The translations under genes were made by a program, and so were the position numbers. From Candidatus Bathyarchaeia archaeon (GTDB lineage: Archaea > Thermoproteota > Bathyarchaeia > Bathyarchaeales > Bathycorpusculaceae), in NCBI GenBank assembly GCA_038727135.1, contig JAVYWL010000002.1:32001-96000 (forward strand): a stretch of DNA of 64,000 nt, in the 5' to 3' direction. This document shows positions 2,971-7,084 of this stretch, in pieces. The notes beneath the pieces are model-generated. The model had not been told where the DNA came from. It made no database searches and worked only from the letters and a program-made list of their open reading frames with translations. The number at the start of each line of letters is the position of its first letter. The stretch's first letter is position 1.

Positions 2971-4563
2971 TTGGCTGAAGTTAAGTTCGCCTTCCCAAGA
3001 AAGGCGACAGGGCTTGTCAGAGAATTAGGCTGGTGGTCAGCATTCTCCGTTTCCCTCAGCTACACCATTGGCAGCGGAATAAACTATTGGTCTGTGCAGG
3101 CTGCATATTGGCATCCAGGCTCAATAATCCCACTTGCATACATTATTGGCGCTTTACCAGCGATCTTCTTGGCCTACGTGATTACCGAAATGGGAATAAT
3201 GATGCCTAGGTCCGGAGGAAGTTACATATACGTATCAAGAGTGTTAGATCCTCACGTAGGCTTTCTAGGAGACTGGTTATACTTCGTAGCCAACAACTTT
3301 GCTACCGGAGTGTTGGCTGTAATCGGCGCTGGATTCTGGGTTAAAATGATTAACCTGCTGGGTTATGCCACCAATAATCCTGACTGGATTGCCTTCACGC
3401 TGGACAATGTGGGGTTAGGCATAATAGCCGTAGTAATAGTTACGATTTATACGCTGTTGTCATTGCTGGGCATAAGAGTGTTTAGATGGTACGTAGCGGG
3501 ACTAGTTGCCATAGGCATAGTAGGAAGCTTTCTCGGGGTTGCCGCCACCTTCTATGGAATTATGAATCCGGCTTACGTGAAGGAAGCTTGGAATTTAACG
3601 TATGGTGCAGGTTCATGGGAACAAGTGCAACAAGTAGCCATAGACAATGGTTGGGCTGATTATGTTACAACCGCCACCAAAGAGGCTGGCGGCACCGGGG
3701 GAGCAACCATACTCAATTTCGTGGACACTTTCTGGGCATACTGGGGAACAACAGCGGCATGCTATTTCGGCGGAGAAATGAAATCTCCAAAGACAGGCTT
3801 CATAGTGGGCGTTTTTGCCGCCACACTATTCGTAATGTTCTGGTATGTCTTAACAGTCATCGGCGTATATACAGCCTACGGAGACTTTGTCAGCCAATAC
3901 TGTTACGTCTATGGAGAAGGATACACGGATCAGGTGACAGCGATGACTATGTTGGATCCAAGTTTACCACTATTCACAGTGCCACTAGCGCATGGGCAGG
4001 TTTGGCTTCAAGCAATATTTGCCTTTATTCCAGCCATGTGGATTTCCAACTGCTCAGGGTCAACTCTACTTGTGGGTCCAAGGCAACCTTTCGCATGGGC
4101 CTTTGACAGATTCTTCCCAGAAGCCTTCAACCGCGTGAATGAGCGTTTCCACTCACCCCACTGGGCAATCATATTGACTGCGTTGATCGCCTACTTATTC
4201 ATACCATTAAGCCTCGGCAACGTTTTCGTGGCAACAGTGGATGCAACATTCATCTTCATCCTCAGCCAACTTCTCATAGCCTTTGCAGGTGTAATATTGC
4301 CTTATAGACGCCCGGACATCTGGGAGAGAGGGTTTAAGGCCACCTTTGCCGGCATACCAGTAATAAGCTTATGTGGCGCCTTAGCAATCTTCTTCTGGAC
4401 TTGGGGATTAGCAGTAGCTGCATCTTGGCTAACCGCTTGGGGAATGGCCTACTTGGCCTTATGGGTTTTCGTTGGCTCCCTCATATGGTTTGCTTATGCA
4501 GAGCGCAACAGAAGGATAGGCATTGCACTACAAGACATATATGGTGAAATACCACCAGCGTAA
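2971..4563 (+). CDS. APC-family amino acid/amine permease
   Basis: About 12 hydrophobic segments; RKATGLVRE, MPRSGGSYIY, GGEMKSP, AWAFDRFFP and C-terminal EIPP motifs. Confidence 0.88.
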   Translation: MAEVKFAFPRKATGLVRELGWWSAFSVSLSYTIGSGINYWSVQAAYWHPGSIIPLAYIIGALPAIFLAYVITEMGIMMPRSGGSYIYVSRVLDPHVGFLGDWLYFVANNFATGVLAVIGAGFWVKMINLLGYATNNPDWIAFTLDNVGLGIIAVVIVTIYTLLSLLGIRVFRWYVAGLVAIGIVGSFLGVAATFYGIMNPAYVKEAWNLTYGAGSWEQVQQVAIDNGWADYVTTATKEAGGTGGATILNFVDTFWAYWGTTAACYFGGEMKSPKTGFIVGVFAATLFVMFWYVLTVIGVYTAYGDFVSQYCYVYGEGYTDQVTAMTMLDPSLPLFTVPLAHGQVWLQAIFAFIPAMWISNCSGSTLLVGPRQPFAWAFDRFFPEAFNRVNERFHSPHWAIILTALIAYLFIPLSLGNVFVATVDATFIFILSQLLIAFAGVILPYRRPDIWERGFKATFAGIPVISLCGALAIFFWTWGLAVAASWLTAWGMAYLALWVFVGSLIWFAYAERNRRIGIALQDIYGEIPPA

Positions 4564-4570
4564 ACTTTAG

Positions 4571-5269
4571 TTACCCACCTTTTTCTTTAATTTTGGCATC
4601 AACTATTGCAAGGTAATACCCATGCAAAATTCCAGGTTTCTTAATCACCCTTATCCCTTCATAATCAATCCTCTGCAGCTTAATCTTATAATCTTCCGGT
4701 TTTAACCCATACTTCTCAATGGTTGATTTCAATTTGTCAATGTGATGTTGAACAGCCTCCTTTAACCTTCTCTTTGTAGCTTCCTCCTCTTTGACGCCGC
4801 CTTCCTCGGCAATTTTTTTAAGCTCATATTTTGTTAAGCTCAACATAAGCAAAGTTACATCCGCTAGGATGAAAAGCAAAATTATGCTTGGGAAGGACAA
4901 GAAAGTCCAATAAATCCATATAAAACCGGGAGGAAAAGTTACGCCCCTCTGCAATAAAATGGCTAAAACAACCACAATCATGAAATAGATTAATGTGACA
5001 AAATTTAAGATCTTGTTTACCCTTATCATTTTTCTAAGCTTGCCAGACTGCCCTATTTTCTTCAAAACTTTTTGGGTTTCTTTACTGAAGTATTTCAGAT
5101 ATGCCGAGTTTAAACTGACCGTTTTGGTTTTCGCCAACAACTCTTTTGGATCGTGAATTGAAGCGCTTCTTAAACCATCAAAGTAGCTAATTACAGAAAC
5201 CAGCTCACTCGATATTTTCTGAGCCTTCTTTACATCCTCCTCAGTCCATTTCACTCTAGCCGACCCCAA
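4571..5269 (-). CDS. Hypothetical membrane protein (2 TM)
   Basis: 232-aa ORF with two central hydrophobic helices, co-oriented downstream of the nucleotidyltransferase-like gene. Confidence 0.75.
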   Translation of the reverse strand: MGSARVKWTEEDVKKAQKISSELVSVISYFDGLRSASIHDPKELLAKTKTVSLNSAYLKYFSKETQKVLKKIGQSGKLRKMIRVNKILNFVTLIYFMIVVVLAILLQRGVTFPPGFIWIYWTFLSFPSIILLFILADVTLLMLSLTKYELKKIAEEGGVKEEEATKRRLKEAVQHHIDKLKSTIEKYGLKPEDYKIKLQRIDYEGIRVIKKPGILHGYYLAIVDAKIKEKGG

Positions 5270-5332
5270 ACCTTACACTAACAACATTAGTACAAATGTG
5301 TAGGATAAGATTATTAAGACTTAGTTGGGAGT

Positions 5333-6121
5333 TTACAACCTAACTTCTTTATACCACTTTTTCTTTGTTCCAACTTGTGCTCTCTTCAACCAATCCTTGG
5401 TTTTGGGCTCCTCATCAATATACTTCAAGATTTGGTCGATCTTTGAGGTCACATCGGCAATATCTTCTGCAGTAAGTTGCTGGTACATGGGGCAGGCAGC
5501 CCTAACCTTTTTCAAGTTGGTTGTGGCTGTGTACCAGAATCCCCAATCGTTTGCAAACAGCTTAGCCATGTATTTGGCATTAATTGTTTCCGGCGCGTCA
5601 GTATCGCCAATTTTGTGGTCCCTCAGGAGGACTATGACGTCTTTGGCGTCTTTCTCTGTGAATTCCACTATTTCCAGTTTGGTTAGCAGCAAGTCGACCA
5701 ATGAGGCTGTTGGATAGTCTAGGTGGAACCTGTTTCGAAAGTCTACCTTGTGGCATAGATCTAACGCGTCATAGAAAATGTCAATGTCAACTTTCCCTCT
5801 ATAAACCTGGCGATTTCTCGTTCCAACACCACTTGTGAAGAAAAAGATGTAGGAGTCGAACTTCCAACCCCTCGTCTCAAAAAACTTTCTGATTTTCGCT
5901 CTTTCTTTATCCGGGGCGACAAAATCTATGTCTGGAAACTCTTGTCCCTCAATTCTCTTCAGCCTTTTGTGAAGGTCAATTGCCATGGGAGACGAGTGAA
6001 TTCTAATCGCTGGGCCGCCTATCAGCCTTAACGTGAGCCCTTCCTTTTTTGCCTCCTCCACTAAGTCTATGGCCAGTTTTACAATTTCCTCGGATGGCAC
6101 TTGCTTCTTTTCCTTCTCCAT
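5333..6121 (-). CDS. Pol-beta-superfamily nucleotidyltransferase-like protein
   Basis: LIGG..AIR..H, DIDF, a third acidic strand (VDIDIF) and a helical tail LLLTK...KDAKD. Confidence 0.65.
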   Translation of the reverse strand: MEKEKKQVPSEEIVKLAIDLVEEAKKEGLTLRLIGGPAIRIHSSPMAIDLHKRLKRIEGQEFPDIDFVAPDKERAKIRKFFETRGWKFDSYIFFFTSGVGTRNRQVYRGKVDIDIFYDALDLCHKVDFRNRFHLDYPTASLVDLLLTKLEIVEFTEKDAKDVIVLLRDHKIGDTDAPETINAKYMAKLFANDWGFWYTATTNLKKVRAACPMYQQLTAEDIADVTSKIDQILKYIDEEPKTKDWLKRAQVGTKKKWYKEVRL

Positions 6122-6124
6122 TAA

Positions 6125-7084
6125 TCATCCCTCCACCTTCCACCATTTCTCAATGCCATCTTTTGTGAGGTCGATGATGAAGCCTCTAAGCACCCCTTCG
6201 CTGTATTCTGAACCGGGGTTTATGGCTAAGGTTTTTCCTATATAGTCTGAAGCATAGGATTCATGGATGTGACCGTGCAAACTTAAGAGGGGCTGATTCT
6301 CCTCAATAAATCTTCGTATGGCTTTGCTGCCTACATTATCATAAATTATTCTTCCTAGGAAGACAACTGGCTTCAAGTTCTTATCCAGTTTTGGAGCCAA
6401 ATCCAGTTTGGTGCAATATGGTGGACAGTGGAAATTTAGGATAACTTTCCTCCAGTCGCCGGAGAACATGTTCTTTATCCTTTCCAGCTTTTTCCATAAC
6501 TCCTCTTCTGGAGCCTCTCGAGGCGTGTCCCATGGTGTAGGGTTAACCCATTCAAAACTTAGCATTTCATAGTCTAGGCATATGTTGACAACCTTTTCCA
6601 GCGGGTATATAACACGGTCCTCGTGGGCCTTTATCAATTCGTCAATTTCAAATGAGTCGTCATTTCCAGGCATCATAACAACGGTGACGTCTTTGGGCAG
6701 TTTTTCATCAATCATGTTAAGCCATCTTTGAAGTCTCTCTTTCATGTAACCGCGGAATAATTCGTCAACCCTTTTTGGATTCTTCATAAGCTCGTCATAC
6801 TCGTCTTGGCTGCAAACATGAGTGTAAAATCCGCTGAAAGTAATCTTATCAATTAGCTTTTTTAGTTCGTCTTCGCCGCTGGCGTTTATCCATCGCCCAT
6901 AAACCATGGTCTTGTATCGGCCGGGGCTTTCCTCAATTATTGGTATTATGAGTTTTCCAGTTAAATCTCCACACAACAATAGAACATTTGCCTTATACAC
7001 TTTGGGGATTGAGAGCCACTTTCGCCAAACCATTTCGCTTCCGTGTATGTCTACGGCATGAAAGAGTCTAACTTTTTCAGCCAT
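6125..7084 (-). CDS. Calcineurin-like metallophosphoesterase (Icc-related)
   Basis: DIHGS, GDLTG, PGNDD, HCPP and HGHIHES motifs. Confidence 0.88.
   Translation of the reverse strand: MAEKVRLFHAVDIHGSEMVWRKWLSIPKVYKANVLLLCGDLTGKLIIPIIEESPGRYKTMVYGRWINASGEDELKKLIDKITFSGFYTHVCSQDEYDELMKNPKRVDELFRGYMKERLQRWLNMIDEKLPKDVTVVMMPGNDDSFEIDELIKAHEDRVIYPLEKVVNICLDYEMLSFEWVNPTPWDTPREAPEEELWKKLERIKNMFSGDWRKVILNFHCPPYCTKLDLAPKLDKNLKPVVFLGRIIYDNVGSKAIRRFIEENQPLLSLHGHIHESYASDYIGKTLAINPGSEYSEGVLRGFIIDLTKDGIEKWWKVEG

Follow-up and report, generated by a model that had tools for sequence, protein, structure and literature searches.

What does a predicted nucleotidyl-adding enzyme do beside a nutrient permease, encoded together with an enzyme of the kind that could remove the nucleotidyl group again? 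This question is raised by a locus of Candidatus Bathyarchaeia archaeon (GenBank assembly GCA_038727135.1), located in a 64,000-nucleotide stretch of contig JAVYWL010000002.1 (positions 32,001 to 96,000 of the forward strand), which is referred to here as the window. Analysis of window positions 2971 to 7084 revealed four genes, encoding an APC permease, a membrane protein with two predicted transmembrane segments (2-TM protein), a nucleotidyltransferase (NT), and a metallophosphoesterase (MPE):

2971-4563, + strand: APC permease (530 amino acids [aa]; PF13520), a divergent member of the APC superfamily
4571-5269, - strand: 2-TM membrane protein (232 aa), assigned by hydropathy, with no Pfam family above the cut-off
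5333-6121, - strand: nucleotidyltransferase NT (262 aa), Pol-beta fold by AlphaFold2 model and motifs
6125-7084, - strand: metallophosphoesterase MPE (319 aa), PF00149 above the cut-off

A reading of this region made from the letters alone (the sequence-only reading) had placed four open reading frames (ORFs) at these positions, and all four were confirmed. The MPE gene lies upstream of the NT gene with a spacer of 3 nucleotides (nt) (MPE stop codon, 6125-6127; NT start, 6121). The permease gene and the 2-TM gene are convergent and 7 nt apart. The analyses described below indicate that the four genes very probably form one functional unit, a real and functionally linked module. The module is widespread in archaea and bacteria and undescribed. 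A literature search covering open-access full text and bioRxiv revealed no description of the NT-MPE-permease gene set, in agreement with the sequence-only reading, whose author knew of no characterized system with this architecture.

The linkage of the genes was analyzed in a scan of one genome per species, which yielded 561 confirmed NT relatives. The best 80 matches correspond to 79 loci, comprising 44 from Bathyarchaeia, 6 from Asgard archaea, 6 from other archaea, and 23 from bacteria, mostly Chloroflexota and Actinomycetota (taxa were taken from record titles). Searching these loci by tblastn with the window proteins revealed MPE in 65, the permease in 55, an MttB-family protein in 9, and a corrinoid protein in 7. 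Clustering of the ORFs revealed MPE in 59 loci, the permease in 57, and both in 55, with the reservation that clustering loses genes overlapped by a longer ORF, such as the MPE gene of locus L054, which was seen by tblastn only. At the 35 loci where NT is flanked by 5 kb or more on each side, both partners were found by clustering in 30 cases and neither in 5 (L054 among them). The MPE gene lies within 300 nt of NT in 43 of the 79 loci. Gene order and orientation differ from locus to locus: the genes may be collinear or divergent, or the permease gene may lie in between. The link is therefore more than one inherited operon layout. The conserved pairing of NT and MPE, on which the sequence-only reading depended, is thus borne out and extends to natural fusions (see below), and the association with an APC permease in both archaea and bacteria is far stronger than that reading could have known.

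Co-occurrence was determined in a sample of 121 Bathyarchaeia genomes, in which related genomes are not independent and matches do not equal copy numbers. The NT profile matched 31 genomes, MPE (E of at most 1e-37) 31, and the permease (E of at most 1e-30) 30; complete sets were found in 28 genomes and partial sets (one or two genes) in 5, and 88 genomes lacked all three genes. The genomes with a partial set were G020 (NT only, with an internal stop), G040 (NT and permease; 87% complete), G045 (NT and MPE; 74%), G057 (an MPE fragment; 58%), and G103 (MPE and permease; 84%). Another 15 genomes revealed only weak partial MPE matches (E of 1e-20 to 1e-26, frames of about 200 to 260 aa), which were taken for another MPE family. 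The numbers of NT, MPE, and permease matches per genome track each other (5/5/5 in G010, 4/4/4 in G028, 6/6/7 in G111, and 14/16/12 in G063). At 31 loci that contain a single full-length copy of each of the three genes, the pairwise distance matrices correlated with r values of 0.79 (NT-MPE), 0.82 (NT-permease), and 0.91 (MPE-permease), and none of 2000 permutations reached the observed value in any of the three comparisons. The median pairwise identity at the same 31 loci was 42.5% for NT, 41.7% for MPE, and 22.2% for the permease. The NT-MPE-permease unit is inherited together, with matched copy numbers. Beyond these genomes, the NT profile retrieved 917 cluster representatives at E of at most 1e-30 among 1.84 billion proteins.

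Paralogous expansions were observed in G063, G107, and G111, with 14, 7, and 6 NT matches, respectively; MPE and the permease matched about as often. Stop codons interrupt some of the copies, as in G002, G020, and G063.

The source genome (1.55 Mb, 94.7% complete) contains exactly three NT genes, three MPE genes, and three permease genes of this subfamily, which form three co-located sets. In addition to the window set, these are:

C1:82254-86426: second set (permease-MPE-NT) with its own 2-TM protein
C2:122977-126396: third set (permease-MPE-NT) without a 2-TM protein

The C1 set has genes for hydroxy-acid and keto-acid enzymes as neighbors (D-2-hydroxyacid dehydrogenase, RraA-like, GlcD/GlcF-like, KDPG aldolase, and PfkB). 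The C2 set is flanked by FeoB/DtxR genes on one side and RNA-modification genes on the other, and catabolic genes do not adjoin it. A fourth, canonical APC permease (C3:139786-140946; PF13520, 178.9 bits) is located away from every NT and MPE gene.

The NT protein was modeled with AlphaFold2. The model (predicted local distance difference test [pLDDT] score, 92.6) has the Pol-beta nucleotidyltransferase (NTase) fold according to both Foldseek and VIA-align, and the fold that the sequence-only reading had expected at 5333-6121 is therefore present. Comparison of the model by VIA-align revealed ANT(2'')-Ia (Z 12.7), LnuA (12.3), MenT1 (11.8), and 5uvd (11.1), followed by JHP933 (10.2), TM1012 (10.1), TglT (9.7), and MenT4 (8.7). 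All eight structural matches with a Z of at least 8 (8.7 to 12.7) are NTase-fold or NTase-named proteins. Weak matches to the alarmone synthetases SpoT (Z 5.1) and SAS2 (Z 4.8) lie at the background level by VIA-align's own note. Alignment of 38 homologues revealed the residues typical of the Pol-beta superfamily: G35 of the hG[GS] motif is invariant (the window protein reads G35-G36), D66 of the DID motif is invariant, and D64 and D114, which complete the carboxylate triad, are at least 90% conserved. Also invariant are L146, K148, K157, D158, and D161 in the helical domain and the stretch D192-W193-G194-F195..Y197 (DWGF.Y). The basic C-terminal tail, GTKKKWYKEV, is conserved. The pattern noticed before in the single sequence (GG, DID, third Asp, and an LxxK...KDxxD helical tail) is thus real and shared by the family.

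The assignment of NT to a curated family was not successful: Pfam gave no family above the cut-off, and NCBIfam gave no match. PF14907 (NTP_transf_5) scored 16.7 bits against NT, below its cut-off of 31.2, and reached an E of at most 0.1 in 21 of the 38 family members (best, 4.4e-6); it would be at most a distant relative. The one paper found to name this family is about a phosphonate cluster. PF08843 (AbiEii, DUF1814) did not match the window NT, reaching an E of at most 0.1 in 4 of the 38 members (best, 0.028), and PF10706 (ANT(2'')/Lnu type) reached an E of 0.049 in a single member of the 38. Searches of NT against the PDB sequences, with the single sequence and with the profile, gave no useful match. 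In an NT subgroup (P0020-P0028, 420 to 438 aa), the protein is extended at the N terminus by a domain of about 115 aa and a linker rich in Pro. By eye, the first Asp of the DxD motif is apparently a His in P0020, P0026, and P0028 (…AHADF…), and the subgroup may consist of inactive or altered variants. A Roadblock-like name given by eye to the extension of about 115 residues was dropped, since Pfam gave no match even at an E of up to 10.

The gene at 6125-7084 had been read as a calcineurin-like phosphoesterase, and PF00149 matched it with 30.2 bits (cut-off, 21.5). Comparison with 41 homologues revealed eight invariant residues, D12, H14, N141, D142, D143, H219, H272, and H274, and at least 90% conservation of D40 and H270; all metal ligands are kept. 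Motif III reads GNDD instead of GNH[DE], the His being replaced, and an insert of about 85 residues (about positions 45 to 130) distinguishes MPE from the small metallophosphoesterases most like it. The AlphaFold2 model (pLDDT 96.5) was closest by VIA-align to aq_1956 (Z 24.3), TT1561 (23.1), and MPPED2 (19.9), followed by Mre11 (19.4), Rv0805 (17.5), and GpdQ (17.3). Searching the PDB sequences with the MPE profile gave aq_1956 as the sole match (E 3.6e-4), and searching them with the single sequence gave none. PF14582 (Metallophos_3, the aq_1956/TT1561 type) reached 21.3 bits, below its cut-off of 28.2. Because the catalytic residues are conserved in the homologues, both NT and MPE look active.

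NT and MPE can form one polypeptide. Four cluster representatives (P0124-P0127, 572 to 581 aa) are fusions with NT at the N terminus and MPE at the C terminus, and all four carry a C-terminal PF00149 match. Both halves were aligned in P0125 (NT, residues 13 to 249; MPE, residues 260 to 572) and the NT half in P0127; the architecture of the remaining fusions was deduced from their length and the PF00149 matches. The fusions come from metagenome gene calls, and any single one could be a read-through artifact. A further protein, P0128 (952 aa, a single metagenome record), has a GcvT-like folate domain, a stretch of about 300 aa without assignment, and then this MPE. Its middle segment (about 335 to 636) is not an NT domain. 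P0128 may be a gene-call artifact or a hint of a metabolic role.

The permease matched PF13520 over its whole transmembrane core (residues 19 to 498; 89.1 bits; cut-off, 27). It is far from the characterized members, the nearest solved sequences being GkApcT and AdiC (E of 4e-5 to 6e-4). An alignment of 37 sequences revealed a conserved C-terminal cytoplasmic tail, GI(D/A)....[FY].E[IL]PP[EA], directly after the last helix. The 2-TM protein, which the sequence-only reading had described as such and as convergent with the permease, has two adjacent hydrophobic segments (about 81 to 148), as determined with a hydropathy script for the L001 copy, which is 97% identical. The same two-segment pattern is present in other family members, with soluble domains flanking the helices. 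This family was found in 15 of the 79 loci, BLAST clustering and the profile agreeing, and is a mostly archaeal, optional fourth component. Its 15 sequences share about 20% identity, with I27, D202, Y203, and I206 invariant. No Pfam family matched above the cut-off, and Atlas returned only unnamed archaeal clusters. A different pair takes the place of the archaeal 2-TM protein in 14 of the 79 loci, 12 of which are bacterial. It consists of a soluble protein (about 160 aa) and another 2-TM protein (about 150 aa), and Pfam gave no usable family for either. Such pairs were observed in L016, L021, L028, L033, L038, L040, L048, L053, and L063 and in fused form in L052, L071, and L074. The soluble partner carries the motif G.GRW[IV]A[DN]F.E[ST]F, and the other has two N-terminal transmembrane helices and a small soluble domain. 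Judging by sequence conservation, the permease tail, the NT tail, and D202-Y203 of the 2-TM protein look like docking or target elements. Complex prediction for the permease, NT (8-262), and the 2-TM protein (21-232) gave a score of 0.00 and a mark of 0.32 with the 2-TM protein as the partner, which counts neither way.

The setting of the window set is catabolic. Upstream, a BKACE-family enzyme and a class-III aminotransferase (GSA-aminomutase/GntE-like) are encoded at 671-2811 on the - strand; the two genes overlap by 4 nt (1978-1981) and lie 160 nt from the permease start, divergent to the permease gene. They are probably part of the pathway that is supplied by the window permease. Downstream are genes for a corrinoid protein, two MttB-family proteins, an MtrH-type methyltransferase, and a class-I/II aminotransferase. 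The longest ORF of the corrinoid gene starts with TTG at 7084 (+ strand), right at the start codon of MPE (7082-7084, - strand). Since about 50 residues of this ORF precede the corrinoid domains, the true start probably lies downstream of 7084, which would leave a divergent promoter region common to the corrinoid and MPE genes. A scan for sigma-70 promoters and terminators gave results at the level of shuffled sequence; the sigma-70 model is not meaningful for an archaeon. PADLOC revealed no match for NT, the 2-TM protein, or the permease, and the sequence-only reading of a catabolic cluster rather than a defense island is supported by these neighbors.

The source genome is that of a hot-spring archaeon; metagenome DNA runs labeled as hot spring contain up to 0.49 of the sampled words of the stretch. 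One sediment-metagenome RNA-Seq library (X16) gave contigs on 3531-4511, 5498-5856, and 6493-6973 with 90 to 99% likeness, covering parts of the permease, NT, and MPE genes; none was placed on 4672-5395. Since DNA can occur in such libraries and neither strand nor level is shown, these contigs were not counted as expression, and they are only suggestive of transcription in a relative.

Analysis of the other loci revealed neighbor genes that differ from one locus to the next. Some loci contain MttB (clusters in 9 of 79), corrinoid (7 of 79), and URO-D-like methyltransferase genes. The Chloroflexota sets lie among genes for FGGY kinases and a GntR regulator, a HAD phosphatase, a DAO-type dehydrogenase with an Fe-S subunit, and an Fe-ADH_2 protein. 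Other loci have a class-III aminotransferase and an aldehyde:ferredoxin oxidoreductase (AOR), or luciferase-like oxidoreductases, creatinase/M24, and D-serine-dehydratase-like proteins. The same unit is thus combined with pathways of many different kinds for amines or nitrogen compounds.

How these components might act together can be outlined as follows. A divergent APC-type permease for amine-type nutrients would be obligatorily accompanied by a cytoplasmic NT and MPE, to which archaeal sets often would add the 2-TM membrane protein. NT would move a nucleoside monophosphate (NMP) from a nucleoside triphosphate to a hydroxyl, and MPE would hydrolyze the resulting phosphodiester, which would give a private add/remove switch. 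The target, weakly favored, would be a constant element of the transporter complex, either the partner of the conserved cytoplasmic tail of the permease or the 2-TM protein, in which Asp-Tyr is invariant, and uptake would be gated by the cellular nucleotide or energy state. Such gating by nucleotidylylation of the transporter complex is put forward tentatively, as a proposal that we hold at less than even confidence. It is possible, but must be regarded as doubtful, that every permease of the subfamily is served by a dedicated writer (NT) and eraser (MPE), which would act on a nucleotidyl mark of the transporter complex, and that Bathyarchaeia, Asgard archaea, Chloroflexota, and Actinomycetota use such private sets in parallel, up to about a dozen in one genome. 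A constant target is suggested because NT and MPE are about twice as conserved as the permease while the contexts differ. The lean toward the transporter also comes from the C2 set, which stands without catabolic neighbors, and from the permease and NT, which have conserved terminal tails of the docking kind. Private sets with up to a dozen copies would argue for physical tethering.

Several points weigh against this proposal. The candidate target is putative, and a small molecule, the cargo, could equally be the target. The two top structural neighbors of NT, ANT(2'')-Ia and LnuA, modify small molecules, although their Z scores tie with that of MenT1. In the permease tail, the conserved position is occupied by either F or Y and therefore cannot be the acceptor. 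The remaining conserved motifs of the permease are presumably general APC signatures. As the 2-TM protein occurs in only 15 of the 79 loci and the bacterial pair in 14, only the permease itself could be a protein target common to all. The GcvT-like::MPE fusion P0128 points to metabolism, and we know of no metallophosphoesterase that acts as a protein de-nucleotidylylase. In addition, related organisms have genes in common, and independence is therefore overstated by the co-occurrence counts. What stands of the writer/eraser idea of the sequence-only reading is that intact enzymes of the NMP-adding and phosphodiesterase types occur together beside a permease in a catabolic setting; their reversible action on the transporter is putative.

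The main rival to a target in the transporter complex is nucleotidylylation of the cargo. NT would O-nucleotidylylate the imported amine or amino alcohol, as ANT(2'')-Ia and LnuA do with their own substrates, and so provide the downstream enzymes with an anionic handle or leaving group; MPE would later remove or cleave the phosphodiester. We consider this somewhat unlikely, although several observations fit it: the top fold matches of NT are small-molecule O-nucleotidyltransferases, the invariant DWGF.Y stretch could bind an ammonium group, one set per permease agrees with one enzyme pair per substrate, and a GcvT-like::MPE fusion exists. MttB and corrinoid genes adjoin the window set and recur at other loci in the numbers given above, and activation of an amine before MttB-type demethylation has a precedent in Eubacterium limosum, which reportedly phosphorylates choline, its MthB using only phosphocholine (PMC12155760). 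However, NT and MPE are far better conserved than the permease, though the contexts imply different substrates, and one set has no catabolic neighbors. Nucleotidylylation would cost two ATP equivalents per molecule, which would be odd for energy-limited anaerobes; an adding and a removing enzyme fused to each other would favor a futile cycle on a free metabolite, and the 2-TM partner would be left without a role. Alternatively, NT might make a small local messenger that MPE degrades, with the permease complex as the receptor or as a sensor driving synthesis. This improbable reading is in line with the NT-MPE fusions, which recall the make-and-break logic of the fused synthetase/hydrolase Rel/SpoT, with the likeness of MPE to the cyclic-nucleotide phosphodiesterases MPPED2 and Rv0805, and with the weak fold matches of NT to SpoT and SAS2, but the latter are at the background level. 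With up to 14 NT matches per genome and matching partners, cross-talk would be expected unless the pairs were tethered, and no receptor domain was recognized.

Two further explanations were weighed. The permease might import zwitterionic phosphodiesters (glycerophospho-amine head groups), to be cleaved by MPE in a GpdQ-like manner, with NT in salvage or control. GpdQ is among the fold matches of MPE, the Chloroflexota sets lie among FGGY kinase, DAO-type dehydrogenase, Fe-S subunit, HAD phosphatase, and Fe-ADH_2 genes, and MttB systems stand beside archaeal sets, phosphocholine being a substrate in the MttB family according to the same abstract (PMC12155760). GpdQ is, however, no closer to MPE than Mre11 or Rv0805 is, and NT would have no necessary role, yet no other partner is as constant, and in some cases NT and MPE are fused. 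Moreover, no APC transporter for phosphodiesters is known to us, and the explanation is accordingly rated as quite improbable. A toxin-antitoxin or defense system, in which a MenT/AbiEii-like NT toxin is neutralized by MPE and the permease adjoins by chance, is very improbable. The likeness of the fold to MenT1, TglT, and MenT4 and the conserved residues of the helical tail (L146, K148, K157, D158, and D161) would agree with it. Opposed to this are the near-obligate tie to one permease subfamily with matched counts, neighbors that are catabolic and not mobile or defense genes, the silence of PADLOC on NT, the poor PF08843 scores (E of at most 0.1 in only 4 of 38 members), and the lack of an AbiEi-type partner among the neighbor clusters scanned.

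GlnD is a Pol-beta-type uridylyltransferase/uridylyl-removing enzyme, and AmtB-GlnK-GlnD is, as an analogy and without relatedness, the system nearest in logic to the module. In both, a nitrogen-compound transporter is tied genetically to a Pol-beta nucleotidyl-adding enzyme and a nucleotidyl-removing phosphohydrolase, which sometimes form one polypeptide. In contrast to that system, homology exists only at the level of the NTase superfamily fold, the candidate eraser is a metallophosphoesterase and not an HD domain as in GlnD, and the transporter is of the APC type and not Amt. No PII family member was found among 28 neighbor-cluster representatives (clusters 3-31 minus 11), a result that involved no search for PII genes elsewhere in the genomes.

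Superposition with the aminoglycoside and lincosamide O-adenylyltransferases ANT(2'')-Ia (153 aligned residues) and LnuA (138 aligned residues), each with a root mean square deviation of 3.2, revealed the same catalytic G, DxD, and D. The identity is only 14 to 20%, NT has about 90 further C-terminal residues, and it is encoded with a permease and MPE in catabolic clusters instead of among resistance genes. With the MenT/AbiEii (DUF1814) proteins, NT shares the fold and a Lys/Asp-rich helical domain after the NT core, but it has no antitoxin-type neighbor, PADLOC match, or Pfam membership. In place of a paired antitoxin, its conserved neighbors are MPE, the APC permease, and membrane proteins. 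For MPE, the best folds are aq_1956 (2yvt), TT1561 (1uf3), and MPPED2. MPE is 60 to 90 residues longer, and its PF14582 score remains below the cut-off; the PDB names of the first two ("hypothetical protein" or uninformative) give no substrate hint. On the basis of these comparisons, NT and MPE belong to none of the families AbiEii, NTP_transf_5, ANT(2''), and Metallophos_3. The choline:tetrahydrofolate methyltransferase system of E. limosum (MthK-MthB-MthC-MthA) resembles the window set in that MttB, corrinoid, and MtrH genes adjoin the latter, and it activates the amine as a phosphate ester before the MttB-family enzyme, according to the abstract (PMC12155760). In contrast, its activator is a kinase and not an NTase, that abstract names neither an MPE nor an APC permease, and MttB genes occur in only 9 of the 79 NT loci. 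New here are the natural fusions of NT with MPE, the motif in the permease tail, the invariance of Asp-Tyr in the 2-TM protein, the census of the three sets, and the co-occurrence table of 121 genomes.

Sediments and hot springs are dominated by uncultured groups in which the module is frequent, namely, Bathyarchaeia, Asgard archaea, and Anaerolineae, and in these groups it stands at the entry point of amine and methylated-amine catabolism. Database-type names such as "AbiEii toxin" for NT and "Icc-related phosphoesterase" for MPE would mislead. If the pair gates the permease, this would be a new principle of transporter control, by which nutrient uptake is switched on and off; if the pair acts on the cargo, it would be a new way to activate amines for breakdown. 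In both cases, a testable role is obtained for three protein families that have had neither curated models nor known substrates.

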